A stretch of 64,000 bases of DNA from Candidatus Omnitrophota bacterium. Its GTDB lineage: Bacteria > Omnitrophota > Gorgyraeia > JAHJTE01. Of the stretch, positions 26,343-46,854 are shown piece after piece. Below the pieces are notes generated by a model. The model ran no database searches and had not been told where the DNA came from. It was given only the letters and a program-made list of their open reading frames with translations. The stretch covers positions 7,674 through 71,673 of the forward strand of contig JAHJTE010000003.1 in the NCBI GenBank assembly GCA_018830005.1, given 5' to 3'. Position 1 is the stretch's first letter, and each line of letters begins with the position of its first letter. Made by a program: the position numbers and the translations under genes.

Positions 26343-27946
26343 TCTATTTTTGATAGTTCAACCGTTAACTTAAAATCAATGGCTTCTAGTTGGTCTATCT
26401 CTTCTTTTATGGTCAAGAGGAGATTTACATTATTAAAATAAGGCGAATTCTCTAATTTGAGTAAGAAATCAGCGAGGTAATTTTCAGCTGAGTCTCCAGA
26501 GGCAAAACTCAAACCTCTGATAAAAAATACCGCCTCCTTTTTAAAGAATTCCATATCTAAGAATTCAATGGATCTGGGTATGATTCGACTCAATTCTTTG
26601 AGATAAACGAAAAGTTCTAACTCTGTTCCGATGATCTCCTTAAAGAATCTCTGTCTCTCTATAATATTATCCCTTAATGTCCTCAGTTTTACAAGATTAC
26701 TGTAATAATCATTGTAGGAAGTAAGTATCTTCTGGTAGCGCTTTAATTGTACTGTCATTGAAAGAAAACTAAATATCATCAACACCAACAGGACAGGAGC
26801 GATAATCCGTAATATCTTCTGTTGTATGCCAATTGTCTTTTGAATCTTTACTGATTTAGGCAAGAGATCTACTGTGTCACCTTTTCCTAAACATACACCA
26901 ATACTAGCAGCAAGTGTTGGTAGGATATTCGATAAATCTTTACCCTTAGGAATCTTAGAGGTAATATTGCTGGGCAGGGTTATAAGCTTAGTAGGAATGC
27001 CACCTAAGCCATCACTTACAAAATCAGTCAGATTTTTCAAGTTCGCCCCACCGCCGGCTAGAAAAACCTGATCAATTGCATCAACTTGGAATTCCTCACG
27101 GAAATATCTAAAAGAGCTGCGTATGTCAGTTAAGAGTCTTTCTAAAATCGGCCGCATCAAGACTGAAATCTGCGATAAGGGTATATCCTGAAAACTCGAG
27201 TTGACTTGTGATTTTGCTGGAATGCCGCATTCTCTTTTTATTTCCTCTGCCTTCTTTGCATCCAGCTCTATTTTTTTAGGAAAGGTAACCACAACACCAC
27301 TTAAGGCGCGAGTAAAGCTATCCGAGGCTGTGGTAATCTTTCGAATAAATTGCAGTGTCGCCCCTTTAAAAATTAAAATATTTGTCTTATTTAGACCGAT
27401 GTCAATAACTGCACTTACCTTCTGCACCATTTCCTGCTCTTTCTGCGCAATAAGGTTTGCCAAAGCGAAATGACTTATCGTAATAAATGCTGGCTCAACA
27501 CCTGCTGCTTGCAGCGATTTTACGTGCCTGTCAATTAACGTATTATGAACCGCTACCGCTAATATCTCATTGCGTTTTATTCCATCGCTGCCAGTAATAG
27601 TGTTTAATATTTTTAAGTCAATTTTGCTCTCATCTAAGTTAAAATTTGTCACTTCCTTTAATGACCAGCGCACTGCATCGCGTAAATCTTCCTTGGGCAT
27701 AAAAGGAACAATGGAACGCTTTAAAACTATGTCCTGGCCAGAGACTAAGGAATAAACTTGCGATTCTGCAGTTCCTAATTCTTCTAATACTTCCTTCAAT
27801 AGCGATTGCTTAACTTCGTCGCTAGATTCAGAACCAAACTCTTTAATCACAAAATCCAAGATATCGATTCGGCCATCGCTTCTTTCAATCTTTACGGCCT
27901 TAATTGAATATTGACCTATATCTATACCGATTAAGTATTTTTCCAT
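26339..27946 (-). CDS. PilM-PilN fusion (GspL-like architecture), paralog 1
   Basis: N-terminal actin-like PilM domain (IGIDIGQYSIKAV...), TM helix at about residue 380, then PilN-like periplasmic tail; 535 aa. Confidence 0.7.
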   Translation of the reverse strand: MEKYLIGIDIGQYSIKAVKIERSDGRIDILDFVIKEFGSESSDEVKQSLLKEVLEELGTAESQVYSLVSGQDIVLKRSIVPFMPKEDLRDAVRWSLKEVTNFNLDESKIDLKILNTITGSDGIKRNEILAVAVHNTLIDRHVKSLQAAGVEPAFITISHFALANLIAQKEQEMVQKVSAVIDIGLNKTNILIFKGATLQFIRKITTASDSFTRALSGVVVTFPKKIELDAKKAEEIKRECGIPAKSQVNSSFQDIPLSQISVLMRPILERLLTDIRSSFRYFREEFQVDAIDQVFLAGGGANLKNLTDFVSDGLGGIPTKLITLPSNITSKIPKGKDLSNILPTLAASIGVCLGKGDTVDLLPKSVKIQKTIGIQQKILRIIAPVLLVLMIFSFLSMTVQLKRYQKILTSYNDYYSNLVKLRTLRDNIIERQRFFKEIIGTELELFVYLKELSRIIPRSIEFLDMEFFKKEAVFFIRGLSFASGDSAENYLADFLLKLENSPYFNNVNLLLTIKEEIDQLEAIDFKLTVELSKIE

Positions 27947-27953
27947 ACTAGCC

Positions 27954-28343
27954 CTATTTCAATAACTCGTTTATTTTCTCTAACAAAGTTTCTGGTCTTT
28001 CTGATTTTACTATATAACAATCTGCACCCATATCTTTACCCAGTTGTCTATCCTCATTCTGGCCCCTGGCAGTAAGCATAATAATCGGGATCATACGATA
28101 TTTCTCATCAAATTTTAGAAATCTGCACACCTTATAACCATCCATCTTAGGAAGCATTAAATCCAGAACAATCAAATCAGGTTTTTCGCTCCTTGCCACA
28201 TTTAAACCTTCTTGTCCGTCAATAGCAACTAAGACAGTAAAATTATTTGCCTCAAGCATTGCCTTAATTGCCATTAAAAAATCAGGCTCATCATCAACAA
28301 CAAGAATTCTTTTTTTGGTATTTCCTTTATCTTCTGTCATCAC
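27954..28343 (-). CDS. single-domain response regulator (CheY-like receiver)
   Basis: ILVVDDEPDF...LDLMLPKMDG receiver motifs, 129 aa, 4-bp overlap with upstream histidine kinase. Confidence 0.85.
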   Translation of the reverse strand: MMTEDKGNTKKRILVVDDEPDFLMAIKAMLEANNFTVLVAIDGQEGLNVARSEKPDLIVLDLMLPKMDGYKVCRFLKFDEKYRMIPIIMLTARGQNEDRQLGKDMGADCYIVKSERPETLLEKINELLK

Positions 28344-30049
28344 TTGCCCTCTTTCTTCGTTAATACCTTATTCGCCTCGTTCACTAGCTCGGTCTCGTTA
28401 AGCGCATCATCAGGATAAGTTACAACACCAATCTCAAAATTTAATTTTATTCTACCGCTGGAGGTATTAAACTCAGGCTTTTCCAAAGACTCTCTTACGC
28501 GACCCGCTAAGGCATATGCACCTTCCTTATTGGTATCGGCTAAGATTGCTAGAATTTCTCCTTTTTTGAATCTTATCACAACATCATTAGGCCTGCGCAC
28601 TGTTTTCTTGACAATTGCCTCTAATTCAAACATAAGCCCTAAAATTTCGTCACGTGATAATCGTGTCTTAACTTTAGAGAAATTCTCTACAGCTAATACT
28701 ACCAATGATAAAGAATTATGTTCAGAGCGTGCGCGATTAATCTCATCAGAAACACGTTCAAAGAAATGCTCCTCTTCGTTGAAAATCGGCAGCGTAAAGA
28801 AAAAACTACTTCCCTTATTTAGTTCAGACTCGGCCCAGATCTCACCCTTATGAAGCTTAAGGATCTCCCGGGAGATTGCCAGCCCTAATCCTGTGCCTTT
28901 CTCTCTCTGAGGCAGGTCCCTGTCTAGCTGCTCGAATTTACTAAAAATCTTTTCAATGCTATCAGGCTCAATACCTTTACCAGTATCAGTAACTTCTACC
29001 CGCAAGTATTTTCTCTCTTGGCCCTTTGCTATGGATTTGCTAATAGTCTTTGCGTCTAACAAGACCTTACTGTTCTTTGGGCTGAATTTTATTGCATTAC
29101 CTATTAGATTAGTAAAAACCTCTATAATCCTTTCCCTATCCGCATATATATCGGGTGTTTCTTTAGGAATCCTATTTTCAACATCTATTTGCTTCTCTAG
29201 TAATAATCCCTCGAATGTACGCAAGACCTCAGTTGAGAGATCTGCCATCTTAATCTTTAACCTTTTTAAATCAAATCTACCAGCTTCGATACGAGAGAGT
29301 GAAAGTAAGTTATTAATTAAGCGCGTAAGTCTTTCAATATTAGAATCCATCAACTGCAGGTAGTCTCTCTGCTGTTTATTTATTGCTCCTGCTGCCTCTT
29401 TCAACATTAAAGAAGTAAAGTATCTGCAAGTAGCTAAAGGCGTTCCTAATTCGTGAGAGACATTAGCAACAAAATCAGATTTTAGGAGGTCCAGTTCTTT
29501 CAGCCGCTCATTTGCGCTTAACAATTCCTGGTAAAGACGTGCATTAGAAACAGCTATCGAGGCCTCATTTGCTAAAGCACTTAAAAGCTCTAAATCATCC
29601 TTAGTAAAAATCCTCTTGCCGCGCTTGTTATTGACATTAAGAACGCCGATTACCTGGTCTCTCGCCTTCAAGGGGACACTTAATAGCGACTGGTTATAAT
29701 ATTTACCCTTTTCGCGCGGCCGAAAGCGTCGATCTTTTGATATATCATTGATAAGTAAAGGTTTACCTGTTTTTGCCACCCAACCAGAAACGCCCACACC
29801 TATTTTAACTATCGCCTTTTTTATAACCTCTCTGCTTATACCCTTGGCATACTCTATCCTCAATTCTTTCTTTTGCTTATCCAGAAGCATTAAAGATGAA
29901 CGCTCCACATTTAAGACTTCGACGGTATTGTCAATGATCGATTTAAGGCAACGCTTTAATCCTAGATTAGAGTTTACCTCCTTGGCAATCTTAAAAAGGA
30001 TTTCCAGCCACTGAACCTTATTCTTGAGGTTTCCTTTACTCTTTGGCAT
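28340..30049 (-). CDS. cytoplasmic GAF sensor histidine kinase with C-terminal degenerate GGDEF-like domain
   Basis: GAF domain, H-box SHELGTP, HATPase_c G-boxes (GTGLGLAI), C-terminal about 150 aa with GGDEF-fold spacing but KKGEIL in place of GGDEF. Confidence 0.75.
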   Translation of the reverse strand: MPKSKGNLKNKVQWLEILFKIAKEVNSNLGLKRCLKSIIDNTVEVLNVERSSLMLLDKQKKELRIEYAKGISREVIKKAIVKIGVGVSGWVAKTGKPLLINDISKDRRFRPREKGKYYNQSLLSVPLKARDQVIGVLNVNNKRGKRIFTKDDLELLSALANEASIAVSNARLYQELLSANERLKELDLLKSDFVANVSHELGTPLATCRYFTSLMLKEAAGAINKQQRDYLQLMDSNIERLTRLINNLLSLSRIEAGRFDLKRLKIKMADLSTEVLRTFEGLLLEKQIDVENRIPKETPDIYADRERIIEVFTNLIGNAIKFSPKNSKVLLDAKTISKSIAKGQERKYLRVEVTDTGKGIEPDSIEKIFSKFEQLDRDLPQREKGTGLGLAISREILKLHKGEIWAESELNKGSSFFFTLPIFNEEEHFFERVSDEINRARSEHNSLSLVVLAVENFSKVKTRLSRDEILGLMFELEAIVKKTVRRPNDVVIRFKKGEILAILADTNKEGAYALAGRVRESLEKPEFNTSSGRIKLNFEIGVVTYPDDALNETELVNEANKVLTKKEGK

Positions 30050-30144: not shown

Positions 30145-32193
30145 TTACTTGAAATCTGGAATCCGCAGTTGCTTCAAAAAGTTCGGATCAACTTTATACC
30201 CATATTTTAACGCCAGCTTTGCGTGTTTTCTGGCTAAATCATTTTCCGGAGGTTCTAAGTTTGCATAGGTCACTGCAAGATTGTTATGCGCTGCTGCAAA
30301 TTTAGGCTCTAAACTAATGGCTTTCTTAAAGGCCTCTACTGCTCTTTTATCACCCAGCTCGCCATAGACAATACCAAGTTTATAATAATCTAAGGCACTG
30401 CCATTTAATAGCTCCAAGGCTCTACTTTTAAAGTAAACAGCTTCTCCTAAATTGCCTAATTTTTCATAAATAAACGCCAATCCAATATATGGTTTACTGT
30501 AATCAGGATTCACCTTTATTGCTGTTTTTAATGTCTCTATTGCTAGATCAATTTCCCCTTCATAATAATATGAAACTCCTAAATTATTATAAGCCAAAAC
30601 AAAAGAAGGATCTAATTCTATAGCCCGCTTAAGATGGTAAATTTCTTTGTCTCTCAAGCCTTTCTTAGCAAAAAGAAGGCCTAAATTATTATGTATTTCA
30701 GCTATATTTGGATTAATAGCCAGCGCCTCTCTAAGATGCTCTTCTGCTAAATCAAAATCATCTTTTTCTAGATACGTGCTAGATAAATTCAGATGAAGAC
30801 GAATCTTTAAAGCTCTAGGAATTATTGGTCTCTTCTTAATCTCTTCCAATGCTATAATAAAATAATTCTCAGCCTCATTTATCTTGCCTTTATTTAATGC
30901 TGCCAGACCTAAATTATTATATCCAGCCATAGAACTCGGCGAGCACCCAACATTATTTAGCCAAAGAGAATATTCATCTTTCCAGATATTATTGCGTCTA
31001 ATTGTCAAAACTGAAAAGAAGATGAGAATGACTGTCGCAACACTAGCTATTAATATCTTCAATGCCTGTTTTTTCCTTGCCTCTACAATATAAAATAACC
31101 TTTCCAAAAATAAAGTAATAGCAATAAATATTCCGATTGCTGGCAAATATAGATGCTGCTCAGCGGCAAGTAGGCTAAGCGTTGCTATAAATTTTGGCAA
31201 AAGATTTACAAAGAACCAAAGAATCGCAAAGCTCAATAACGGGAGTCTTTTATAGGAAGCAATAGAAATAGATATAAGACTAATAATTACTAAGAATGAC
31301 TGCAGGGCATCAGGATTCAACAATGAGCTAAATTCAGGAAAACGTCTTCCTATGCACAAATTGAGAGGGCAGAAAAACAACTTCAAATAAAAAACGCTGA
31401 CATGTAACTGCGTGAAGAAATTTGAATAGAGGCTACGTCGCAGGCCACCGATGTTGGCAATTGCGCCGAAAAGATGGTATTTTAATAAGAGATAAATTAA
31501 AACTACAAAAATAAATAAAAAATAGCGTTTTATAGATGCCTGGGTATCTTTAAGATTATCTTTGCGAAATAAAAAATCATAAACTAGTAAAATAAGAGGA
31601 AAAACAATTATGACCTCTTTGGTCAGTAGGCCTAAGATAAAGACAGCTAAAGAGATCCAGTATGCTTTATCAAAACGGCCAAAGTTACTATGAATGTAGG
31701 AAATTAATCCTACAAGAAAGAAGAAACTCGAAAGCAAAGTTGAGCGACAAGATATATAGATTACTGCTTCAGAATTTATCGGATGAACTACAAACAAAAG
31801 ACTAGTTAAAAATGAAGGCCAAAAAAAGTTATTTTGTAAAAGGGAGCGCAGCAAGAAAAAAACTAAAACAGCATTTAAGAAATGAATAGCAATATTGATT
31901 ATATGATAGCCGGTAGGATTAAGCCTGCCAAAGAAATAATTAAAGACAAATGTCAGCATTAAAAATGGTCGATACATCCCCTTGGCAATCGGAACGGAAG
32001 TCATTTTACCAGATGTAAACAACATATAGACTTTATTAAAATCTTTTATAAAATTATTCTTCACTATCATGCGGCCGTCATCAAAAACAAAAGGAACAGA
32101 CAGGCTTTTAGAATAAAGTACAAAGCATACCAAAAATATAATAATAACCGCAAGGTATTCTTTGTTTCGGTTAAGTAATTTATTTTCCAGCAT
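30145..32193 (-). CDS. polytopic membrane protein with C-terminal TPR repeats (GT-C / PMT_2-like candidate glycosyltransferase)
   Basis: About 11 N-terminal TM helices followed by about 8 TPR units (AxxYNNLG... repeats); 682 aa. Confidence 0.55.
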   Translation of the reverse strand: MLENKLLNRNKEYLAVIIIFLVCFVLYSKSLSVPFVFDDGRMIVKNNFIKDFNKVYMLFTSGKMTSVPIAKGMYRPFLMLTFVFNYFFGRLNPTGYHIINIAIHFLNAVLVFFLLRSLLQNNFFWPSFLTSLLFVVHPINSEAVIYISCRSTLLSSFFFLVGLISYIHSNFGRFDKAYWISLAVFILGLLTKEVIIVFPLILLVYDFLFRKDNLKDTQASIKRYFLFIFVVLIYLLLKYHLFGAIANIGGLRRSLYSNFFTQLHVSVFYLKLFFCPLNLCIGRRFPEFSSLLNPDALQSFLVIISLISISIASYKRLPLLSFAILWFFVNLLPKFIATLSLLAAEQHLYLPAIGIFIAITLFLERLFYIVEARKKQALKILIASVATVILIFFSVLTIRRNNIWKDEYSLWLNNVGCSPSSMAGYNNLGLAALNKGKINEAENYFIIALEEIKKRPIIPRALKIRLHLNLSSTYLEKDDFDLAEEHLREALAINPNIAEIHNNLGLLFAKKGLRDKEIYHLKRAIELDPSFVLAYNNLGVSYYYEGEIDLAIETLKTAIKVNPDYSKPYIGLAFIYEKLGNLGEAVYFKSRALELLNGSALDYYKLGIVYGELGDKRAVEAFKKAISLEPKFAAAHNNLAVTYANLEPPENDLARKHAKLALKYGYKVDPNFLKQLRIPDFK

Positions 32194-32260
32194 CTTCTAT
32201 TAAATTTTCACTAAATTATCTTTCGGGCCCAGAAGGAAACTCGAATAATTATATTTATTA

Positions 32261-33115
32261 CTAGGGATTATTTTCGGTACGATCAAGCCGTAGCTGCGCA
32301 ATCTGTTCAGAGATAAGCCCGAGCATAAATATAGTTATGCTTGATGTAAAAAGTAGAGCAGACATATTAGTAAAACTGTGGAAGGAAATAAAAGTGTAGA
32401 GGTAATTGCCCATCCCCAAAAAAAACAATAAAAAGCTAATCGGAAGAAATACCCTAAAGGGCGAAAAGACTGTAGCAATCTTTGCAATTATCAGTAAAAA
32501 TCGTATACCATCAGATAAGGGCTTTATTTTGCTTTTTCCTTTTCTGGCGAGTGCAGTTATTGGAACATACTTAATACTTCTGCCGCTACGAAGTATTGCC
32601 AAAGTAAGGGTAGTAGGATAAGAAAAGCCATTAGGTAAAAGGTAGAGAAATTTTAAAGCCAAATCTTTTCTTATCACCCTAAAACCAGATGTTAAATCCT
32701 GTATCTTAAACCTTGTTACATAGCTTGCAAACCAATTATAAATTATGTTAGCTGTTCTGCGAGCTGGTGCATGAGAATCTTTACTTCTTGCTCCTACAAC
32801 CATATCATATTTATCAATATATTCTAAAATCCTGGCTATATCAGCAGGGTTATGCTGTCCATCGCCATCCATGAATACTAATATGTCTGCCTTGGCTACT
32901 CTTATGCCTGTTTTTACGCTAGCGCCATTACCCATACGATAGGGATGGCTTATGACAAGTGCTCCAGAATCTCTAGCAACCTTGGCGCTATTATCAGAAG
33001 AACAATCATCTACAACTAAAATCTGGAATTCCTTTTTTATACTATTTTTTATTTCTTTTATAACCTGACTAATGTTCTCTTCTTCGTTAAAGATTGGTAA
33101 AATTATATCTATCAT
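32261..33115 (-). CDS. family 2 glycosyltransferase, GtrB/ArnC-like polyprenol-phosphate sugar synthase
   Basis: N-terminal GT2 motif (ILPIFNEE...VVDDCSSD), DxD, two C-terminal TM helices typical of GtrB/ArnC. Confidence 0.8.
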   Translation of the reverse strand: MIDIILPIFNEEENISQVIKEIKNSIKKEFQILVVDDCSSDNSAKVARDSGALVISHPYRMGNGASVKTGIRVAKADILVFMDGDGQHNPADIARILEYIDKYDMVVGARSKDSHAPARRTANIIYNWFASYVTRFKIQDLTSGFRVIRKDLALKFLYLLPNGFSYPTTLTLAILRSGRSIKYVPITALARKGKSKIKPLSDGIRFLLIIAKIATVFSPFRVFLPISFLLFFLGMGNYLYTFISFHSFTNMSALLFTSSITIFMLGLISEQIAQLRLDRTENNP

Positions 33116-33148
33116 CTTTAGCTATTACTTAACTTCCTTTATTCTAAC

Positions 33149-33176
33149 AAAAAGGGGAGAAAAAAACCTCCCCTTT
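33149..33176 (-). terminator. rho-independent terminator after pilin gene (bidirectional-capable)
   Basis: AGGGGAG-8nt-CTCCCCT hairpin flanked by an A-run and a T-run, located 60 bp beyond the pilin stop codon. Confidence 0.6.
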
Positions 33177-33235
33177 TATCTTCAAATTAAAAATCCGTTC
33201 GCTCTAAAACCAAAGCAACATAACTAAATAAAAAA

Positions 33236-33592
33236 TTACGGCCAGGCTAAACCACCGCCAGCAGTACCTATTGTACCGGTGGCAGGATTGTAAGTCCAAT
33301 TAAATGTGCCGGCTGCAACCCCTGTGCTAGCTGTCAACTGAGTTAAGTCCGTATCTAACTGAGCGATTAAAGCAACATCACTAGCAGGAAATACAGGATT
33401 ACCCGCAACAGCGCCAGAGGCATAGAATAATTGGGCTGAAGCGCGCAAAGCACCCAATTCGGCCATTGCAGTTGCCTGTCTTGCATCATCAGCCAAGTTA
33501 ACAAATCTTGGAACAGCAACAGCGGCTAAAATTGCTAATAATGCCAGGACTATAACTAATTCAATTAATGTAAAACCGCTTAATCTATTCAT
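33236..33592 (-). CDS. type IV pilin (major pilin paralog)
   Basis: Class III signal MNRLSG|FTLIELVIV (Gly-1, Glu+5), hydrophobic alpha1 helix, Thr/Gly/Ala-rich C-terminal tail; N-terminus near-identical to the pilin at 45084-45533. Confidence 0.85.
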   Translation of the reverse strand: MNRLSGFTLIELVIVLALLAILAAVAVPRFVNLADDARQATAMAELGALRASAQLFYASGAVAGNPVFPASDVALIAQLDTDLTQLTASTGVAAGTFNWTYNPATGTIGTAGGGLAWP

Positions 33593-33771
33593 CAGATCTC
33601 ACCTCCCTCACAAAACATAATTATTACTAACTTAACATCCAAGTAGAAACTTGTCAAGATTTTTTTCTCAATAACATTAATTAAAGTATAGCCTAAAAAA
33701 ATACCTATTGCAAGCAAAATTGTCAATAATTATAACTCGTTGAAAAATAAGGAATTGGAAAAGAAGTTACT

Positions 33772-34542
33772 TTATGCTTGCCTCTTTTTAAATCTTCTCC
33801 TTATCTCTTCTTTTATTAAATCTGAGCCTGTAAAAACACCTAAAAGAAGAGAAAAACCAGTAATTAATATCCTGTCTAAAATAGCTAAAGACAAGGCAAC
33901 GTTAAGGCTAAGGCCGTTTTCCATTAACAGTAAAACCAACCCTGTATCTTTAAATCCTAAGCCAGCAGGTGCGGGAGATAAATACCCCAAGACAAAGGAC
34001 ATGGAGATAATCTTTAAAATATCTAAAAAATGGGGATGAAAATTAAAAAATTCAAAAAGTAAATAATAATAGAGAACTACCAATGCCATATTCAAAATAA
34101 CAAACGGCAGGATGCAAAAAACGCTTTTTAGCTTTTCCTTAAAATATCTTAAGGCCTCTCTTATTGATAAAGCAAGTTTGTGCTTTCTTCTTGCAACTAT
34201 TATCAATAAAAGAATTAATATTATTACAAATGCTAAAGGAACCCTCCTGATGAATCCCGCCCCAAAGTAGGCGCCAAGGAGGAGCCACAATGATACGGAA
34301 AGAAACTCTAGAATAATAAAGGCACTTAAGGCATTGGGGAAGGCTAACTTTTTATGTCGAGAAAAATAACTGCTTACAATATAGCCTGCACCTGTAAAAA
34401 GACATTTATTCAGGGCCCTGGCAAGACAAGTTAATTTAAAGGATTCGCCTAACTTTATCTCTTTTCCAAGCAGGATATAAAAATTTAGGGCTTGAATAAT
34501 GGAAATTAAAAACAGGATTAAAATAATAAAGAATGTTCCCAT
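33772..34542 (-). CDS. polytopic membrane protein (hypothetical; possibly flippase-like / UPF0104-like)
   Basis: 256 aa, about 8 TM helices; lies in the glycan gene neighbourhood. Confidence 0.4.
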   Translation of the reverse strand: MGTFFIILILFLISIIQALNFYILLGKEIKLGESFKLTCLARALNKCLFTGAGYIVSSYFSRHKKLAFPNALSAFIILEFLSVSLWLLLGAYFGAGFIRRVPLAFVIILILLLIIVARRKHKLALSIREALRYFKEKLKSVFCILPFVILNMALVVLYYYLLFEFFNFHPHFLDILKIISMSFVLGYLSPAPAGLGFKDTGLVLLLMENGLSLNVALSLAILDRILITGFSLLLGVFTGSDLIKEEIRRRFKKRQA

Positions 34543-34660
34543 AACAAAGGTTAAAAAATCGAGTCCTTAAACACTCTCAGATACGGAAAGAAGAAATAGT
34601 CCTTTATCTATTATACCATCAGAAAAAGCAGAGTTAAGAAATTTCTAAATAAATCCAACC

Positions 34661-34689
34661 TTGACTACTCTTGTTTAGGAGCCTAAAAT
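34661..34689 (+). promoter_or_regulatory. sigma70-type promoter candidate for FkbM methyltransferase gene
   Basis: TTGACT-17 bp-TAAAAT 50-80 bp upstream of the ATG, with AAGGAG RBS at 34723-34729. Confidence 0.5.
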
Positions 34690-34738
34690 AGCTGTTAGAA
34701 TTAACTAACTACAAGCTTATATAAGGAGATATCATCCC

Positions 34739-35617
34739 ATGCTAGAAATCAGTACAATTAAAGACGCAATATTTATCTTGAAAAGATTTGGGATAAGACA
34801 TGCTTTCGGAAGATTCGAAGATTTAGTCTTAATTAAAAAAGAAGAAAGAAGAAAAAACAAATTATATAAAAAATTAAAGCCGCAAGGAAGATTAAGGAAG
34901 AATATACTTGGAAACACAATGCAATTAGATATGAATGACTTTGGAATACATAGGGATTTATTTCTAGATGGAATCCGAGAGCCGCAGGCTACGCAACATT
35001 TAATGCAGCTCTTAGGTAAAGATGATATAGTCCTAGAGGTGGGAGCCAATATTGGCTATTATGTTCTTATAGAATCTCGACTCTGTAAAAAGATTTACGC
35101 CGTTGAGCCAATAACTGAAAATATAAATAATCTAAAGATAAATATTGAATTAAACCAATGCAGGAATGTAGCGGTATTTCAAACAGCCTTTGGTGCTGAA
35201 AGAACCAAAAAAACTATGTATATATCAAAAAAAAGTAACTGGCACAGTTTCTATCCTAAAAAGAATATAATAAAAAAACTATCTGTTGAAATGGATAGCG
35301 TTGATAATTTTCTTAAAGACAAGGAGAAACCTACTTTTCTACGTATGGATGTTGAGGGATACGAACTGAATATATTAAAAGGCATGCAGGAAACCTTAAA
35401 AAATATAAAAAGATTATTTATTGAGGTGCATGCCGATATATTAGCATTAGAAGAAACGCAAGAATTGATCGAGATCTTAAGAAAAAATTCATTTCGGCCT
35501 GAATTAATAATTAAATATGACCGGCCTAAATTCTCTAAAATTCTACCTAATGATTATATCAATAAGATTTATGACGGAGACAAAGGAGGCTATGAAATAT
35601 TTTTTTCTAAATTCTAA
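34739..35617 (+). CDS. FkbM-family SAM-dependent methyltransferase
   Basis: VLEVGANIGYY SAM-binding motif characteristic of the FkbM domain, 292 aa. Confidence 0.75.
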   Translation: MLEISTIKDAIFILKRFGIRHAFGRFEDLVLIKKEERRKNKLYKKLKPQGRLRKNILGNTMQLDMNDFGIHRDLFLDGIREPQATQHLMQLLGKDDIVLEVGANIGYYVLIESRLCKKIYAVEPITENINNLKINIELNQCRNVAVFQTAFGAERTKKTMYISKKSNWHSFYPKKNIIKKLSVEMDSVDNFLKDKEKPTFLRMDVEGYELNILKGMQETLKNIKRLFIEVHADILALEETQELIEILRKNSFRPELIIKYDRPKFSKILPNDYINKIYDGDKGGYEIFFSKF

Positions 35618-35628
35618 GGCTGACTACT

Positions 35629-36720
35629 TTAATATTGCTTGGCAAGAATATAGTCTACTATCTCTTGGGAAGGCCTGCACTTGGCATCTTGAGGCGTTTT
35701 TCTTTTGAAGTTTTTATAATTATCCAAAAAAATACTTATCTCTTCTGGTGAAAACTTAGAAAGCACTACATTTTCCCCTAATCCCTCCATTCTTTCAGTA
35801 TGATTTCTCATAAGCAGGCATGGCTTGTCTAAATAGAAGCTCTCCTCCTGAATGCTGCCTCCATCGCTAATAATAAACTCGCAATTCTTTAGTAAATGAA
35901 GGAATTCAGAATGTGAAACAACCGACAGGCAATTAATATTATCAAGCTTATCAATCTCTTCATTAAGATGGAATCTCTTGAGTAAATTAACTGTGGGAGG
36001 GTCCTGAATAAAAATTACAGGAAATCTCTTTGCGACTTCCCTGATAAGACCTATCAAAAGTTTCAATCTCTTTTTGCGAAAGATATTCTCCGCCCTATGA
36101 AAGGTTACAAGCACATACTTTTCAAAATCCAATTTTAGTTCACTCCCTTTACTCAGAGTATAGGCGGTTGCTTCAAAGGAAGTATTAGCAGAAAGTAAAA
36201 CTGACTTTTTTTCACAACCAATTTTTCTCAAGTTTTCAAAGGCCCAGGATGAAGGAGCAAATAATATATCAGACCATCTAACAATAAGATTCCTTATAAT
36301 CTCTTCTGGGAAAGGATTGAAATAATTAAAGGAAAACAGACCGGATTCTATATGCGCTACCTTTAATTTTGCTCTTTTGGCTAAATATAAGGCAATGAGT
36401 GAAGAAAGCGGCTCTCCATGAATAAGACAAACGCCAGAGGTGTCTAAGAATATTTCTTTTCTTATGCGTTTGTAAGATAGGCTTTTGAATAATACATCTT
36501 TTAACCACATGAATATTTTCAAAATACTGGAAGCATTCTCTCCTTTTGATAGAACTACAGAGGGACCGTCTAACTCAAATTCTTTTCTTAATTCACTCGT
36601 GATTAGAGAATGCTGGCCTAAGTCTATAAGATTAAACTTAATGCCTCGCTCTTTGAGCCGCTGCATTACTGGCGCCATCTTTATAAATTGCGCTTTTGTC
36701 CCAATAGCTATATGGATCAT
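35629..36720 (-). CDS. UDP-N-acetylglucosamine 2-epimerase-like (WecB/GT28-like fold) protein
   Basis: N-terminal GTKAQFIKMAPV resembling the WecB GTRPEAIKMAP motif; 363 aa. Confidence 0.55.
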   Translation of the reverse strand: MIHIAIGTKAQFIKMAPVMQRLKERGIKFNLIDLGQHSLITSELRKEFELDGPSVVLSKGENASSILKIFMWLKDVLFKSLSYKRIRKEIFLDTSGVCLIHGEPLSSLIALYLAKRAKLKVAHIESGLFSFNYFNPFPEEIIRNLIVRWSDILFAPSSWAFENLRKIGCEKKSVLLSANTSFEATAYTLSKGSELKLDFEKYVLVTFHRAENIFRKKRLKLLIGLIREVAKRFPVIFIQDPPTVNLLKRFHLNEEIDKLDNINCLSVVSHSEFLHLLKNCEFIISDGGSIQEESFYLDKPCLLMRNHTERMEGLGENVVLSKFSPEEISIFLDNYKNFKRKTPQDAKCRPSQEIVDYILAKQY

Positions 36721-36820: not shown

Positions 36821-38035
36821 TTATTTCAAGAACAATCTCGACATATTCCACATCGGCAAAAATATCGCAAGGGCTAGACCGAGCACAATCAATGCCAAAA
36901 CAACTATTAGTATCGGCTCAATCAAGGTCGTCATATTCTTTACTGCGCTATCCACCTCTGAGTCGAAATGTTCAGAAATCTTAATCAATAGAGTATCTAC
37001 AGTTCCGCTCTCCTCTCCTGCGCCAACCATATGCACGACCATTGGCGGAAATACCTTATGCAAGGCAAGCGGATCAGCCATACCCCTGCCTTCTTTAACA
37101 TTGTCTCGAACATCATCCAGGGCTTGCATTACAACAACATTGCCTAAAACACTCTTGGTAATATCCAGTGCCTTCAAAACAGGCAGGCCGCTTTGCATAA
37201 GCGTACCTAAGATCCGAGAGAATCTAGCCATAATTGCGTTATTAATTATCTTGCCAAAGACAGGTACCTTTAATATAAATTTACTCCACATAATATTACC
37301 TATCTTGGTACGCAGGAAAAACTTAAAACCAGTTATTAAAAGGATTATCAGAATCAAAAATATATACCAGTAGCTTTGAAATAGTTCATTGATCTTCAAC
37401 ATAACCCTGGTAGGAAGCGGCAATTCTGTATTGAATTTGGCAAAAAGGGCGGCAAACTTAGGCAAGATAAAAGTAGTAATTCCAATAAATACAGCAAATA
37501 TAGCTATAAGCACCACCATGGGATAACGTGTTGCTGTTTTTATCTGCGTGCTTGTCGCATCTTCTTTTTCTCCTAACTCCGCAATCCGCAGTAAGATATC
37601 GTGCAATTTTCCTGAGCTTTCACCTGCACGCACCATATTAATATAAAGGGTAGAAAACACATTCGAAAACCGCCCCAGGGAATCTGAGAATTCACTTCCT
37701 GCTTCTATGTCCTTCTTTATCTTACTAACTATCTCCTTTAATCGCCAGTTCTCTGTCTGATCTTCCAATGCCCTTAATGAAGTCATAATCGGCATGCCTG
37801 CGCCTTCAAATGTAGCCAGCTGCCTGGTCATCATATTAATATCTTTCAAACTTATTGTTTTAAGCCTTCTTTTTAAGTTCAAAATGCCTGTTAGGCCTTT
37901 CTGTTCACTAATCTTTATCGGCGTATAGCCCATATTTTTGAAATACTCAATGAGCATTTCAGTATTTTTAGCCGAGATTACGCCGCCTATTGCCTTGCCT
38001 GTTCTATCTCTTACTTTATAATTGAAATTAGGCAT
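36821..38035 (-). CDS. type IV pilus/T2SS inner-membrane platform protein (PilC/GspF family), copy 1
   Basis: 404 aa, two GspF repeats, 3 TM helices, conserved C-terminal LIEPILIVVL...F motif. Confidence 0.88.
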   Translation of the reverse strand: MPNFNYKVRDRTGKAIGGVISAKNTEMLIEYFKNMGYTPIKISEQKGLTGILNLKRRLKTISLKDINMMTRQLATFEGAGMPIMTSLRALEDQTENWRLKEIVSKIKKDIEAGSEFSDSLGRFSNVFSTLYINMVRAGESSGKLHDILLRIAELGEKEDATSTQIKTATRYPMVVLIAIFAVFIGITTFILPKFAALFAKFNTELPLPTRVMLKINELFQSYWYIFLILIILLITGFKFFLRTKIGNIMWSKFILKVPVFGKIINNAIMARFSRILGTLMQSGLPVLKALDITKSVLGNVVVMQALDDVRDNVKEGRGMADPLALHKVFPPMVVHMVGAGEESGTVDTLLIKISEHFDSEVDSAVKNMTTLIEPILIVVLALIVLGLALAIFLPMWNMSRLFLK

Positions 38036-38047
38036 TGTATTTTTGGC

Positions 38048-39757
38048 TTAGGCCTGTGTCTGTGTCTGGGTTATGCGCAAAATCTCCTCAATAGAAGTCA
38101 AGCCCCTTGTTGCCTTCTCTAGGCCATCGTCCCTTAAGGTTATTAGGCCTCCCTTTCTTGCCTCGCGCATTATTACATCACTTGAGGCCTTGGCAACTGC
38201 TATCTCTCTGAGTGCCTCATCCATTAACATTACCTCAAAGACTGCGATTCTCCCCTTATAGCCGATATTAGAACAGTGACGGCAACCCACAGCCTTAAAG
38301 AATTTATAATCTTTATTCTTTTCTAATCGCAATTCTGTCAATAGCTGCTCACTGGGAGAATAGGCCTGTTTACAATTATCGCAGAGGACGCGCGCCAGCC
38401 TTTGAGCTACTACACCGATTAAGGAAGATGAAATCAAAAACGGCTCAGCCCCCATATCGATCATTCGCGTTATTGCTCCGGGGGCATCATTGGTATGCAA
38501 AGTTGAAAATACGAGCTGGCCAATTAAAGCAGCGTGGATTGAAATCTCAAGTGTCTCTAAGTCTCTAATTTCACCAACCATAATTACATTTGGATCTTGC
38601 CTTAATATCGAACGCAAGCCTGATGCGAATGTAAGGCCTGCCTTGGGATTAACTTGGGACTGTCTAATCAATGGCAATTTATACTCAACAGGATCTTCCA
38701 AAGTAATAATATTCTTGCCAATTGTATTTATTGTCTGCAACGTTGAATAAAGCGTAGTTGTTTTTCCGCTTCCAGTAGGGCCAGTAACAAGAATTATGCC
38801 GTAAGGATTGCGTATCATCTCTTGGAATTTATCAAGCGCCTGTTTAGAAAATCCTAAATCCCTAAGACCAATAAGAAGGCTACTTTTATCTAGTAGCCTC
38901 ATCACTATATTTTCACCATGGATAGTGGGAAAAGAAGAAACCCTTAAATCCACTTCAATCTTGCCTAATTTAAAAGTAAAGCCTCCATCCTGGGGTCTTC
39001 TTTTTTCTGCAATATCCATTTTAGAAAGAATCTTTACGCGCGAGATTATACCACTCATCAAGAATTTTGGCGGAGACGGCTTCTCATAAAGGATACCGTC
39101 TATACGAAAACGTATTCTTAATTGCTGTTCATCCGGCTCGATGTGAATATCAGAGGCCTTCTCTTTTATTGCCTGGACAATAAGAAGATTAACCAGGCGT
39201 ATCAGGGGTGCTTCTTCAGCCAATTTGGAGGAATCCTTTATATCATCTACTCTCTTGAGCTTCTCAATCATCTTATTTATATCTTCCTCATCAATATCTT
39301 CCACAATCTGTTCAATATCACCCTTGACACCATAATAAGAATCAATAGCAGTGCCAATTAACTGACCAATACTCAAAACCGGATCTATGTCACACTCGCT
39401 CTTTAAACGTACTTCATCAATAGCGATAATATCAGAAGGATCAGCCATAGCCACAGTCAGGCTATTGCCGACTTTAAACAATGGAATAAGCGTATACTTA
39501 CTAGCTACTTCTTTAGGAATTAGCTTTAAGACTTCTTTATCAATTGTATAATCAGCCAAGTCAATAAAGGGCACGCCAATTTCTTTGGCAATTATTGCTG
39601 CTATCTTTTCATTATTAACCACGCCCTGCTTAATCAGAACCTTCTCCAGAGAAAGGGCATTCTTTTTTGCTTCTTCTTTGGCAAGCTTTAAGCGCTCCTT
39701 GGAAATCAACTCCTCATCCAGAAGTATCGCTTCTAAAATCTTCTTACCTTGCGTCAT
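38048..39757 (-). CDS. type IV pilus/T2SS assembly ATPase (PilB/GspE family) with N-terminal MshEN/T2SSE_N domain, copy 1
   Basis: 569 aa, Walker A GPTGSGKTTTL, Asp box, His box, tetracysteine CxxC...CxxC, N-terminal T2SSE_N domain. Confidence 0.92.
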   Translation of the reverse strand: MTQGKKILEAILLDEELISKERLKLAKEEAKKNALSLEKVLIKQGVVNNEKIAAIIAKEIGVPFIDLADYTIDKEVLKLIPKEVASKYTLIPLFKVGNSLTVAMADPSDIIAIDEVRLKSECDIDPVLSIGQLIGTAIDSYYGVKGDIEQIVEDIDEEDINKMIEKLKRVDDIKDSSKLAEEAPLIRLVNLLIVQAIKEKASDIHIEPDEQQLRIRFRIDGILYEKPSPPKFLMSGIISRVKILSKMDIAEKRRPQDGGFTFKLGKIEVDLRVSSFPTIHGENIVMRLLDKSSLLIGLRDLGFSKQALDKFQEMIRNPYGIILVTGPTGSGKTTTLYSTLQTINTIGKNIITLEDPVEYKLPLIRQSQVNPKAGLTFASGLRSILRQDPNVIMVGEIRDLETLEISIHAALIGQLVFSTLHTNDAPGAITRMIDMGAEPFLISSSLIGVVAQRLARVLCDNCKQAYSPSEQLLTELRLEKNKDYKFFKAVGCRHCSNIGYKGRIAVFEVMLMDEALREIAVAKASSDVIMREARKGGLITLRDDGLEKATRGLTSIEEILRITQTQTQA

Positions 39758-40203: not shown

Positions 40204-40725
40204 TTAATCAGATCTTAAATATATACCCAATTCCAAAGACGCCTTTAAATTAGGCAGTGACTCTTCAGCTCTGGTAATCTCCAATTGTTTAAGCACAACA
40301 ACACTCTTCTCCAGGCCTTCTAAAGCTCCCAAGAAGCTACCCAAGGCCTTAAAATCGCAAACTGATTCGATAGCTATAGGTAAAATCTGATAATCCTCTC
40401 CCAGGCTTATTATCTTCTCTGGTTTTACAGAATCTAAATTAATACCTAATGTACTTGCTACTTTCGTCAATTCATCTAGGGCCCCTAGTTCATCCTCAGA
40501 ATAAGAAATAATCCTTGCCTTTATCTTATCGCTGAGAGCAATTTGCTCTTTTACCTTTAGGAGTTCTCCATACTGCTGGTTATATCGTGCATTCAATTCA
40601 CCTAGACTCTTAGCTAAAGGAATATAGATAAAAATAAGGGAAAATATTAAAATAATAAAGAGGATTCCAGTAATAATGATAAATCTGTTATTTATAAATA
40701 TCTTCTTTAGGCTAAACTTAGGCAT
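40204..40725 (-). CDS. PilO/GspM-like bitopic protein (paralog 2)
   Basis: Single TM then coiled coil and periplasmic domain, 173 aa, between PilMN and PilP-like genes. Confidence 0.55.
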   Translation of the reverse strand: MPKFSLKKIFINNRFIIITGILFIILIFSLIFIYIPLAKSLGELNARYNQQYGELLKVKEQIALSDKIKARIISYSEDELGALDELTKVASTLGINLDSVKPEKIISLGEDYQILPIAIESVCDFKALGSFLGALEGLEKSVVVLKQLEITRAEESLPNLKASLELGIYLRSD

Positions 40726-40734
40726 TGGAAAGAA

Positions 40735-42438: not shown

Positions 42439-42454
42439 ATAATTCTTCTGACCC

Positions 42455-44095: not shown

Positions 44096-44167
44096 TATCT
44101 AAATTCCAAAATCCCTGCTCTTGAGAACAGACAGGCAAATGGTAAAATTCACTTAATTTTTCTTGAT

Positions 44168-44692: not shown

Positions 44693-44707
44693 TTTGCGAC
44701 TTTGCTA

Positions 44708-45064: not shown

Positions 45065-45083
45065 TTCTTGAATATCTCAAAGA

Positions 45084-45533: not shown

Positions 45534-45600
45534 AAAGCCACCTCCATAAGATTTAGCGCCGATTGTCATCTGATCGAACAGATGACCTTAATCGACGAAT

Positions 45601-46830: not shown

Positions 46831-46854
46831 AAATCTCCTTTGGCGGTATTTATA

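Follow-up and report, generated by a model that had tools for sequence, protein, structure and literature searches.

TfpW of Pseudomonas aeruginosa is reportedly a GT-C arabinofuranosyltransferase for group IV pilins (Kus et al. 2008), and GtrA, GtrB and GtrC are said to form a three-component type of periplasmic glycosylation (Mann & Whitfield 2016). TfpW is a 646-aa protein with 11 transmembrane (TM) helices, a DDX motif and a TPR domain; its gene directly follows pilA, and the enzyme is needed for pilin glycosylation (bioRxiv 10.1101/2020.04.19.049825). Loci of this kind typically carry a terminator between the pilin and accessory genes (PMC11841053). In Gtr systems, a single sugar is attached to undecaprenyl phosphate by a GT2 enzyme, exported by a flippase and transferred at the periplasmic face by a GT-C (PMC11127046). 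Related pairings of a GtrB- or Ppm1-type synthase with a GT-C, namely streptococcal GtrB/PgtC2 and Pgf and actinobacterial Ppm1/Pmt, O-glycosylate Ser/Thr-rich extracytoplasmic segments (PMC11092751). Eukaryotic TMTC1-4 are protein O-mannosyltransferases of CAZy family GT105 (PMC7801869).

A second type IV pilus operon holds the sugar genes

The window (the whole stretch of 64,000 nucleotides analysed here) derives from an uncultured Omnitrophota bacterium, in which a set of glycosylation genes is part of a second type IV pilus-like operon and not a free-standing locus. The two halves of the pilus operon lie on either side of the sugar genes, PilB and PilC upstream (36821-39757) and a block common in gene order to five related contigs (L001, L003, L004, L006 and L008) downstream (25147-30049):

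38048-39757, minus strand: PilB-like ATPase with MshEN domain (T2SSE 7e-134, MshEN 1e-16)
36821-38035, minus strand: PilC-like platform protein (T2SSF 7.8e-55)
28340-30049, minus strand: GAF-HisKA-HATPase-GGDEF kinase (HK)
27954-28343, minus strand: response regulator (RR)
26339-27946, minus strand: PilM-PilN fusion
25689-26342, minus strand: PilO
25147-25689, minus strand: T2SSB-like protein

The six open reading frames between these halves, found at the coordinates and on the strands given by the earlier sequence-only reading, are listed with the elements around the pilin gene:

35629-36720, minus strand: 363-aa WecB-like enzyme of the UDP-GlcNAc 2-epimerase family (Epimerase_2, PF02350 6.4e-48)
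34739-35617, plus strand: 292-aa FkbM-family methyltransferase (PF05050 1.3e-18; TIGR01444 2.4e-26)
33772-34542, minus strand: 256-aa polytopic LPG_synthase_TM/TIGR00374 flippase-like protein (PF03706 1.8e-13, above cutoff; TIGR00374 4e-6)
33698-33726, minus strand: sigma-70-like promoter match upstream of the pilin, TTGACA-17-TATTTT (consensus match only)
33236-33592, minus strand: 118-aa prepilin, candidate acceptor (N_methyl 7e-8; TIGR02532)
33146-33177, minus strand: intrinsic terminator between pilin and GT2, a hairpin (AAAAGGGGAGG-loop-CTCCCCTTTT) followed by a T tract (U-tract in the transcript)
32261-33115, minus strand: 284-aa GT2, polyprenyl-phosphate sugar synthase of the DPM1/GtrB/ArnC type (PF00535 1.7e-27)
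30145-32193, minus strand: 682-aa GT-C glycosyltransferase, proposed pilin-recognizing transferase (TPR Pfam matches, homologues, AF2 model)

No pilin besides the 118-aa protein was found in the surrounding PilB-PilC...PilMNO operon, and this corrects the protein's earlier description as a paralogue embedded in a glycosylation locus. The other pilin of the window, MRRLAGFTLIEL, is encoded at 45084-45569 (minus strand). Their N-termini, previously called near-identical, do have 10 of 12 residues in common, but the similarity is generic: it reflects a class III signal peptide and alpha-1 helix, and is therefore no evidence for recent paralogy. Overall the two pilins are 42% identical, mostly in the N-terminal helix.

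The prepilin has a 6-aa leader (MNRLSG/FTLIE) and a mature form of 112 aa, lacks Cys and Lys, and is 56-62% identical to its orthologues. Ten Ser/Thr fall within residues 81-110; the C-terminal tail had been supposed to be the part that is decorated, but no feature marks it out as such. The structure model of this pilin, built from single-sequence input, is of modest confidence (pLDDT 72). A ribosome-binding site (GGAGG) is present at the gene, and the evidence for the promoter is weak because shuffled sequence leads one to expect no fewer matches of this kind than the region has. The terminator claimed for the pilin gene at 33149-33176 is real, and a matching hairpin lies between pilin and GT2 in all five related loci; it is proposed to be an attenuator, separating the highly expressed pilin from the downstream enzymes.

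The lipid-sugar synthase and the TPR-bearing GT-C

The GT2 is a predicted polyprenyl-phosphate sugar synthase by family. Its closest relatives in the PDB are Pyrococcus furiosus DPMS (5mlz, 3.6e-13), ArnC and GtrB (sll0501); its top NCBIfam matches (AglJ, PpgS and Dol-P-hexose transferase) are all under cutoff, and PgfS matches weakly. Together with two C-terminal TM segments at residues 206-240 and 250-269 (by hydropathy), these matches bear out the GtrB/ArnC-like assignment first made from the translation. The enzyme is 62-68% identical among orthologous loci, and across phyla 50-55% in pilin-linked loci vs at most 36% in unlinked ones.

Fold and homology identify the 682-aa membrane protein with TPR repeats as a GT-C glycosyltransferase, with predicted activity, as had been suspected from its layout. 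It consists of a TMTC-like N-domain of 11 TM helices (residues 1 to ~405) and a periplasmic C-terminal TPR domain (residues ~423-665). TPR profiles match the protein itself, and PMT_2 is seen in its homologues but not in the protein, the N-domain of which is below Pfam thresholds (including those of TMTC_DUF1736 and PMT_2) and has no PDB sequence match. TMTC4 is among the homologues, in which PMT_2, PMT and TMTC_DUF1736 domains are found; a pairwise alignment with insect TMTC4 covers residues 13-419 at 25% identity (E=1e-20). The AlphaFold (AF2) model of the N-domain has a pLDDT of 92.6, and its Foldseek matches among solved structures are almost exclusively GT-C enzymes, with probability 1.00 for ArnT, STT3, Pmt4 (TMq 0.59), AglB, PglB and DPY19. 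Conserved motifs comprise FVFDD (D38-D39), YRP (74-76), R150, K192-E193 and Y269-x6-P276; across 27 diverse homologues, D38 and R150 show no variation and D39 and K192 hardly any. D38/D39, R150 and K192 correspond to the TMTC motifs M1, M3 and M4 (PMC7801869). In the window subclade, the M5 'DW' metal ligand is replaced by C-I-G-R and the phosphate-binding Arg of M7 ('ERxxY') by Q (H in other Omnitrophota), so donor and metal handling are unlike those of characterized GT-Cs.

These two substitutions would be compatible with the protein being mainly a non-catalytic factor for pilus biogenesis or stability, a PilF/PilW/Tgl-like TPR scaffold on a degenerate GT-C anchor, as would the identity of the best NCBIfam matches to the TPR region (PilW, Tgl and GltE, all far under cutoff). 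Such a role is very improbable. The TPR matches are generic repeat matches, and a dedicated, highly conserved lipid-sugar synthase is always found beside the protein. Moreover, conservation extends to the DD of the catalytic loop, R150, K192-E193 and Y-x6-P, and NLCIGR, the altered M5 segment, does not vary among six sequences of 49-55% identity, which indicates selection on the active site and argues against a scaffold.

The protein has parallels among described enzymes. It shares with TMTC1-4 sequence homology across the whole N-domain, the 11 TM helices and lumenal or periplasmic TPR domain, the motifs DD, (S)YRP, R(xD), KE and E..Y and, as proposed here, an adhesion-related acceptor and a polyprenol-phosphate monosaccharide donor made by a DPM1-type GT2. 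It differs in being bacterial and periplasmic, in the replaced M5 and M7 residues and in its proposed acceptor, a pilin in place of cadherins; the presence of WecB-like and methyltransferase genes makes mannose an improbable sugar. By its published description, TfpW matches the protein in size (~650 aa), in its essential DDX motif in the first periplasmic loop and Y-x6-P in a later loop, in its periplasmic C-terminal TPR domain and in the position of its gene downstream of the pilin inside the pilin operon, and it targets pilin Ser/Thr. However, the spacing of the second proline differs (Y-x6-P-x9-P in the window, YX6PFX7P in TfpW), the window GT2 sits between pilin and GT-C, and TfpW draws on polyprenyl-P-D-Araf, for which a GtrA-like protein and a PRPP-transferase/DprE1/E2 pathway are used, whereas the window donor is proposed to come from the DPM1/GtrB-type GT2, aided by the WecB-like epimerase, the methyltransferase and the flippase-like protein, which is of the MprF type.

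The accessory cassette

The flippase-like protein, FkbM methyltransferase and WecB-like epimerase reported beside the pilin are all confirmed by their Pfam matches. The first has about 6-7 hydrophobic segments, with homologues in the same cassettes of L005, L009 and L015, and is proposed as the flippase of the lipid-linked sugar, a role we assume. The FkbM protein is a putative sugar O-methylase; the equivalent slot in L015, L003 and L005 holds a SAM methyltransferase of another family. The WecB-like enzyme, proposed to supply a nucleotide sugar, scores 163.7 bits against TIGR00236 (cutoff 210) and has homologues in the cassettes of L004, L005, L009 and L015 (1e-93 to 4e-124); relatives without WecB retain the same GT2. 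The locus follows the synthase/flippase/GT-C logic of GtrA/GtrB/GtrC, but a GtrA-type flippase is absent from it and the LPG_synthase_TM protein takes the place of that small protein; Gtr systems also target O-antigen and not protein, and their GT-Cs are without TPR domains.

Variation in this cassette bears on whether the genes are a mobile island of glycan diversity that came to lie in the pilus operon by chance, functionally unconnected to the pilin. Cassette content differs among close relatives, in two different slots; FkbM is encoded opposite to its neighbours and has a GC of 0.307, the lowest in the locus, and genes resembling selfish elements (23S_rRNA_IVP, GIY-YIG) occur within the same operon of relatives. 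Hitch-hiking is nevertheless the least probable of the alternatives, and a highly unlikely one: the GT2 and TPR GT-C core is fixed in place among related contigs with only the accessory genes varying, the triad is found again in unrelated phyla, and pilins are enriched near the GT-C as detailed below.

Conservation of the pilin-GT2-GT-C linkage

A survey of the gene set in other genomes, which the sequence-only reading had proposed, recovered the linkage with pilins both within and beyond the phylum. The order PilB-PilC-pilin-terminator-GT2-[variable sugar cassette]-GT-C-HK-RR-PilMNO is found in 5/5 related Omnitrophota contigs, and the more distant L015 is colinear (pilin-GT-C-GT2-WecB-methyltransferase-flippase-like), with a methyltransferase of a different family. 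Triads of pilin, GT-C and GT2 occur in Desulfobacterota and in Beta- and Gammaproteobacteria, and a Bacteroidales contig has a pilin-GT-C pair. A short pilin lies 64-138 bp upstream of a TMTC-like GT-C on the same strand in nine contigs (L011, L014, L015, L032, L035, L044, L055, L056 and L059), and 42-75 bp upstream in 3/3 sampled proteobacterial contigs. Of 22 pilin ORFs, 15 have a GT-C no more than 1.5 kb away, although such zones make up 27% of the surveyed sequence (p=8e-5), and pilin-linked GT-Cs group in coherent clades.

At E<=1e-3 the huge TMTC-like family comprises 79,933 representative clusters, and many of its loci are without a nearby pilin; pilin specificity is therefore not a property of the whole family. 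The GT2/flippase/GT-C system may glycosylate something other than the major pilin, its place in the pilus operon then reflecting co-regulation alone. Such a target could be the pilus machinery, an envelope glycan or other proteins exposed to the periplasm, the last by general O-glycosylation of the kind carried out by actinobacterial Pmt or streptococcal GtrB/PgtC2. Most sampled family members have no pilin neighbour, the window subclade has the GT2, and often a 3-4 kb cassette, between pilin and GT-C, and GtrB-type synthases with GT-Cs modify O-antigen (PMC11127046) or many Ser/Thr-rich proteins (PMC11092751). On balance another target is unlikely, although it has more weight than the other alternatives: pilin linkage is clade-wide, strand-consistent and often immediate, spans four phyla with a co-conserved GT2, and TfpW, of the same architecture and position, modifies the neighbouring pilin. 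Domain annotation of the operon showed no genes for O-antigen or capsule. The broad-spectrum GtrB/PgtC2, Pgf and Ppm1/Pmt systems differ from the window in having genes unlinked to their substrates, no TPR domain and no pilus association. PglL/TfpO/PilO (Wzy_C; Neisseria, Pseudomonas group I and Acinetobacter), often encoded beside the pilin gene, likewise O-glycosylate type IV pilins in the periplasm, with a suggested role in phage or immune evasion, but belong to another enzyme family and chemistry, with en bloc transfer from undecaprenyl-PP-oligosaccharide; Pfam annotation of the locus gave no Wzy_C protein.

Proposed route of pilin glycosylation

[quoted passage not shown] The WecB-like epimerase would yield a UDP-HexNAc-type sugar, which the FkbM methyltransferase may modify. 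The GT2, held by its two C-terminal TM helices, would then place one sugar on polyprenyl (undecaprenyl) phosphate at the cytoplasmic face, and the LPG_synthase_TM protein would bring the lipid-linked sugar to the periplasmic face. There, the TPR domain of the TMTC-like GT-C may grip membrane-anchored prepilin or pilin, and the enzyme, relying on the DD of its first periplasmic loop, would transfer the sugar to Ser/Thr of the globular part of the pilin before assembly. The terminator after the pilin would hold enzyme transcripts far below those of the pilin, and strain-to-strain exchange of cassettes (extra PMT_2 GT-Cs, GT4, methyltransferases and epimerase) may diversify the glycan.

Since the pairing of pilin and sugar-transfer genes recurs in several phyla, the pilus is most likely sugar-coated, most likely through a little-studied variant of a known mechanism. 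Such a glycan may serve to mask the pilus against phages or hosts, or to stabilize the filament.

Genomic context of the locus

The minus strand of the window, which comes from a Candidatus Omnitrophota bacterium, carries two tandem type IV pilus-like clusters, A and B, the second of which surrounds the candidate glycosylation genes:

40204-48549, minus strand: cluster A, encoding PilB, PilC, a GspG-like pilin, two minor pilins, a T2SSK-like protein, a PilMN fusion and PilO
38048-39757, minus strand: cluster B, PilB with an MshEN domain
36821-38035, minus strand: cluster B, PilC
35629-36720, minus strand: WecB-like epimerase
34739-35617, plus strand: FkbM methyltransferase
33772-34542, minus strand: flippase-like LPG_synthase_TM protein
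33236-33592, minus strand: 118-aa prepilin (mature form 112 aa)
32261-33115, minus strand: 284-aa family 2 glycosyltransferase (GT2)
30145-32193, minus strand: 682-aa TPR membrane protein (GT-C)
25147-30049, minus strand: cluster B downstream part, encoding a GAF-HisKA-GGDEF kinase, a response regulator, a PilMN fusion, PilO and a T2SSB-like protein

In cluster B, PilB and PilC are followed by the six genes from the epimerase to the GT-C, and then by the kinase, response regulator, PilMN, PilO and T2SSB-like genes. The sequence-only reading had called these six open reading frames and guessed their domains; all were recovered where it had placed them, and the guesses were borne out by matches to TPR (C-terminal third of the 682-aa protein), GT2, prepilin N-methylation, LPG_synthase_TM/flippase-like, FkbM and WecB-type Epimerase_2 domains. 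It had further described a pilin paralog embedded in a glycosylation locus. The sugar-gene neighbours are indeed present, but the pilin is cluster B's own rather than a stray paralog: the 118-aa protein is the only one in cluster B with pilin motifs and pilus genes lie on both sides, and the sugar genes hence sit inside a pilus operon, grouped about the pilin that belongs to it.

The two clusters differ in content, with minor pilins and the T2SSK-like protein confined to A and glycosylation genes confined to B, and PilM and PilN are fused in both (567 and 535 aa). No PilT-like retraction ATPase or recognisable secretin was found among the proteins scanned. Directly upstream of the cluster A PilB, 707-aa (48577-50700, minus strand) and 194-aa (50669-51253, minus strand) open reading frames without a Pfam match at E<=0.001 lie where one might look for a secretin or pilotin. 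MshEN, the c-di-GMP-binding N-domain of MshE, is present on both PilB-like ATPases (38048-39757 and 46855-48549), and the GAF-HisKA-HATPase-GGDEF hybrid kinase and response regulator of cluster B lie between the glycosylation genes and PilMN; together, the ATPases and the kinase suggest c-di-GMP-controlled pilus extension. In a more distant Omnitrophota locus (L015; L numbers denote related loci on other genomes' contigs), a PilZ protein adjoins PilM. Immediately after the pilus genes of cluster B comes a GAF-ANTAR regulator, an RNA-binding antiterminator (24464-25198, minus strand), which is kept at the same position in L001, L003, L004 and L006.

The pilin and its terminator

The pilin has a class III signal peptide (MNRLSG/FTLIEL) and a hydrophobic alpha-1 helix, matches N_methyl and TIGR02532, and is linked to PilB, PilC and PilMNO. 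A second pilin (MRRLAGFTLIEL) lies at 45084-45569. The near-identity of the two N-termini, to which the sequence-only reading had drawn attention, is real, but is explained by the generic class III signal peptide and alpha-1 helix; overall, the proteins are 42% identical. The strong terminator proposed at 33149-33176 is a good intrinsic terminator, consisting of a AAAAGGGGAGG / CTCCCCTTTT hairpin and a T-tract, and an equivalent hairpin occupies the pilin-GT2 gap in five related contigs.

Ten Ser/Thr residues fall within pilin residues 81-110. The pilin structure is a single-sequence model of moderate confidence only and was hence left out of site choice. The mature protein contains 22% Ala and no Lys, Cys or His; orthologous pilins have Lys, so the Lys-free state is strain-specific. 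The GC content of the pilin gene (0.454, against 0.31-0.36 in its neighbours) could be read as horizontal transfer, but this was rejected because the Ala/Gly-rich composition of the protein accounts for it. Near the C-terminus, a [ST]-[ST/A]-G-x-[IVLM] motif (PATGTI in the window, residues 103-108) aligns across phyla in GT-C-adjacent pilins, namely those of the window, L001-L015, L035, L044, L046, L055 and L056. It may form a structural turn or serve as a site of recognition or glycosylation.

The TPR membrane protein as a GT-C enzyme

The 682-aa protein had been assigned a GT-C/PMT-like layout with TPRs. Profile searches bear out the TPR repeats (residues 423-665), but the protein does not match PMT_2, PMT or TMTC_DUF1736 by its own sequence: the N-terminal 420 residues have no Pfam family even at E<=10, no PDB sequence match and no NCBIfam match. 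Nor did a 27-sequence profile of the family detect a solved relative in the PDB, its TPR match there being spurious; no solved structure of the TMTC branch of GT-C enzymes was detected by sequence. As the N-domain lies below these Pfam thresholds, it is treated as a remote relative rather than a member.

Homology to GT-C enzymes is nonetheless demonstrable. A phmmer search recovered 140 homologues among the candidates scored, several carrying PMT_2, PMT or TMTC_DUF1736, and its matches included an insect TMTC4 (E=1.4e-12, in a database of 5.8e9 sequences), which BLASTP aligned with residues 13-419 at 25% identity (E=1e-20). Pfam matches among the 27 homologues were to PMT_2 (six), PMT (two) and DUF1736 (four). 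An AlphaFold2 model built with these homologues has a pLDDT of 92.6 and a pTM of 0.93, and the best 20 Foldseek matches to it in the PDB are all GT-C enzymes (probability 1.00, TMq 0.36-0.59); the closest solved structures are ArnT, STT3 (yeast and human OST), Pmt4, AglB, PglB, DPY19, AftA and ALG9. The TMTC4 homology and the model matches thus answer whether the TPR membrane protein is a GT-C transferase in the affirmative, and it is predicted to be of the TMTC/PMT_2 kind.

Helix order in the model agrees with TM1-TM11, as does hydropathy, and residues 255-274 correspond to a juxtamembrane helix. On this 11-TM fit to the TMTC topology (PMC7801869), both the DD loop and the TPR domain would be periplasmic, the orientation being deduced from the positive charge of the N-terminus and from where the DD loop has to lie. 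The acidic DD/DxD motif, FVFDD38-39, follows TM1 in the first extracytoplasmic loop; among the 27 homologues, D38 is invariant and D39 is present in at least 90%, and DD is universal in 28 representatives. Seven ligand motifs are described for TMTCs, M1-M7: DD, SHKSYRP, RxD, KE(T/Q)xxT, DW, PxxP and ERxxY (PMC7801869). The window's enzyme keeps M1 (FVFDD38-39), M2 (YRP74-76), M3 (R150) and M4 (K192-E193), and partly keeps M6 (P333, its first Pro) and M7 (E345 and Y349). The M7 Arg is His in Omnitrophota and Gln (Q346) in the window. The M5 'DW' metal ligand, D/H-rich in most relatives, is replaced by N-L-C-I-G-R in the window's subclade (G282-R283 in the window). As the substituted segment is invariant across six sequences that are 49-55% identical, the alignments suggest an altered active site that is still under selection, rather than decay.

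The TMTC-like GT-C family comprises 79,933 representative clusters at E<=1e-3. Many genomes encode two to four tandem TPR paralogues (including L005, L009, L012, L013, L019, L037 and L064), and some loci with these enzymes are without any pilin; the family clearly has other acceptors besides pilins.

The synthase, the putative flippase and the accessory enzymes

The GT2 (PF00535) had been described as GtrB/ArnC-like with C-terminal TM helices. Hydropathy confirms two C-terminal hydrophobic segments, and finds none in the epimerase or methyltransferase. The best PDB matches are the Pyrococcus Dol-P-Man synthase (DPMS), ArnC and the GtrB homologue sll0501, and the motif D83-G-D85-GQH aligns with DADLQH of DPMS (D-x-D-x-Q-H). 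These matches, a GT-A catalytic domain with the DxD motif and the membrane anchors place polyprenyl-phosphate synthases as its closest relatives. All NCBIfam equivalogs score far below cutoff, the nearest being AglJ (129.5 bits against a cutoff of 325), PpgS and Dol-P-hexose transferases. Assignment as a polyprenyl-phosphate monosaccharide synthase is well supported at the level of class but not at that of a specific sugar.

The locus has no GtrA-family protein; the third slot beside the synthase and GT-C is held by the LPG_synthase_TM protein, which passes its Pfam cutoff and also matches TIGR00374 ('flippase-like'). That it flips the lipid-linked sugar is an assumption, drawn from the analogy to the flippase domain of MprF and to the GtrA slot of three-component systems (PMC11127046). 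The WecB-like enzyme scores below the TIGR00236 cutoff. The FkbM gene is the sole plus-strand gene of the locus and has its lowest GC (0.307). It is convergent with WecB, from which 11 bases separate it, and divergent from the flippase-like gene, with a spacer of 196 bp between the two. Its strand, spacing and GC are consistent with a recently swapped cassette element. The spacer has promoter-like matches on both strands; such matches were dropped as evidence, their count equalling shuffle expectation.

Two other routes were rejected. A PglL/TfpO-type O-oligosaccharyltransferase was dropped for lack of a Wzy_C match in any locus protein, and ArnT-type lipid A modification was dropped in view of the pilus-operon context and the TPR domain of the GT-C.

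Conservation of the pilin linkage

The linkage of this gene set to pilins recurs in related genomes. Five orthologous Omnitrophota loci (L001, L003, L004, L006 and L008) share the order PilB-PilC-pilin-terminator-GT2-(cassette)-TPR GT-C-HK/GGDEF-RR-PilMN-PilO-T2SSB, with identities to the window of 49-55% (GT-C), 56-62% (pilin) and 62-68% (GT2). Variation among the orthologous loci is confined to the cassette, which in relatives contains one or two extra TPR-less PMT_2 GT-Cs, a GT4, SAM methyltransferases or a WecB homologue; the window's cassette (WecB, FkbM and flippase-like) is in another slot, between PilC and the pilin. The more distant L015 (GT-C 38% and GT2 60% identical) is colinear as pilin-pilin-GT-C-GT2-WecB-methyltransferase-LPG_synthase_TM, with Methyltransf_11 replacing FkbM. 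In L003 (3482-3862, 12145-12516 and 16365-16625) and L005 (13291-13641), the pilus operon also contains 23S_rRNA_IVP genes, encoding four-helix-bundle proteins, and a GIY-YIG gene. The window lacks these insertions, which look selfish or mobile.

When one genome per species was scanned with an alignment of closer GT-C homologues, 58 loci with TMTC-like GT-Cs emerged. In nine, a short pilin lies 64-138 bp upstream of the GT-C on the same strand: L011, L014 and L015 (Omnitrophota), L032 (a Bacteroidales MAG), L035, L044, L055 and L056 (Desulfobacterota) and L059 (a gammaproteobacterium). L010 and L053 have divergent pilin genes within 260 bp of the GT-C. The pilins of the nine loci are usually Cys-free and Ser/Thr-rich, and most are 106-125 aa when mature. 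A large proteobacterial clade shows PilA-GT-C-(GT-C)-GT2-sugar genes in all three sampled members (L065-L067), with the GT-C immediately after the pilin, and one of these loci sits behind PilS-PilR. Overall, 15 of 22 pilin open reading frames lie within 1.5 kb of a GT-C, a zone making up 27% of the sequence (p=8e-5), and of the seven 'distal' ones, six belong to the orthologous loci, where they share an operon with the GT-C. In a neighbour-joining tree, pilin-linked GT-Cs form coherent clades apart from large clades without pilins. The GT2 is unusually well conserved: in Syntrophaceae and Proteobacteria it is 50-55% identical to the window's, whereas the GT-C there is only 24-28% identical; in loci without pilins, GT2 identity is at most 36%.

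Comparison with known glycosylation systems

By described architecture and position rather than by sequence, TfpW of Pseudomonas aeruginosa group IV is the nearest functional precedent. This 646-aa, 11-TM GT-C has an essential DDX motif, Y-x6-P and a TPR domain in the periplasm; its gene directly follows pilA, and pilin O-arabinosylation requires it (bioRxiv 10.1101/2020.04.19.049825). The window likewise has the order pilin-terminator-GT2-GT-C in a pilin operon, with the GT-C downstream of the pilin and of DDX and TPR architecture. However, the TfpW donor comes from an Araf pathway, whereas the window encodes a GtrB-type GT2; no PRPP transferase or DprE1/DprE2 was found among the six locus genes or their operon neighbours. 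The TfpW motif is YX6PFX7P; in the window, Y269-x6-P276 is conserved family-wide, but Leu stands where TfpW has the Phe, and the second Pro comes one position later (P-x9-P). Among the more than 3,366 relatives of about 650 aa that a proteobacterial homologue search recovered, none bore the name TfpW (AAM52060.1), and a tblastn search for TfpW against plasmids gave no match.

Eukaryotic TMTC1-4, which share the architecture, can be shown to be remote homologues. The synthase and GT-C logic is common to Gtr, streptococcal GtrB/PgtC2 and Pgf (PMC11092751) and actinobacterial Ppm1/Pmt, but these systems, unlike the window, have neither a TPR domain nor pilin linkage. PglL/TfpO enzymes are unrelated. 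Two recent Omnitrophota genome surveys treat type IV pili but not pilin glycosylation.

The locus appears from its sequence to be a TfpW-like three-component pilin glycosylation system, not a new principle. Its particulars are that the donor comes from another branch, that the putative flippase is of MprF type, that the active site of the GT-C is a variant one and that the genes are nested in a c-di-GMP-associated second pilus operon. The pilin-glycosylation interpretation of the sequence-only reading is supported as far as this kind of analysis reaches.

Proposed mechanism and significance

The proposed process is a three-component periplasmic O-glycosylation of the pilin. GT2 would load a monosaccharide, possibly a HexNAc from the WecB-like enzyme methylated by FkbM, onto polyprenyl phosphate, and the flippase-like protein would expose the lipid-linked sugar to the periplasm. 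The TPR domain of the GT-C would bind the membrane-anchored pilin, which is the probable acceptor, and the enzyme would pass the sugar to Ser/Thr. The terminator would hold enzyme expression low relative to the pilin, and the extra GT-Cs, GT4s and methyltransferases of relatives would give rise to different glycans.

Pilin glycosylation alters phage and host recognition, filament solubility and surface chemistry. To our knowledge, the established enzymes are of only two types, PglL/TfpO and the single characterised GT-C TfpW. Omnitrophota are ultra-small and possibly host-dependent, and a role in attachment is proposed for their type IV pili (PMC10066038). Judging from the present locus, Omnitrophota appear to conserve a TfpW-like route that draws on a GtrB-type lipid-monosaccharide synthase, and the swapping of accessory cassettes indicates that pilus glycans diversify at strain level.

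The most interesting aspect is the conserved pilin-GT-C-GT2 triad, spread over several phyla and tied to the TMTC branch of GT-C enzymes, for which the locus offers a natural, genetically linked, putative enzyme-substrate pair. A tentative and rather less probable extension is that TPR-bearing TMTC-like GT-Cs and one conserved GtrB-like GT2 form a large, ancient and unrecognised family of pilin-dedicated O-glycosyltransferases, spanning at least Omnitrophota, Desulfobacterota, Bacteroidota and Beta/Gammaproteobacteria, with TfpW as a specialised offshoot. If true, the bacterial GT-Cs would be prokaryotic counterparts of the animal cadherin O-mannosyltransferases TMTC1-4, the pair would be tractable for TMTC biochemistry, and many environmental type IV pili would be glycosylated, including the short 'e-pilin-like' pilins of Syntrophaceae.
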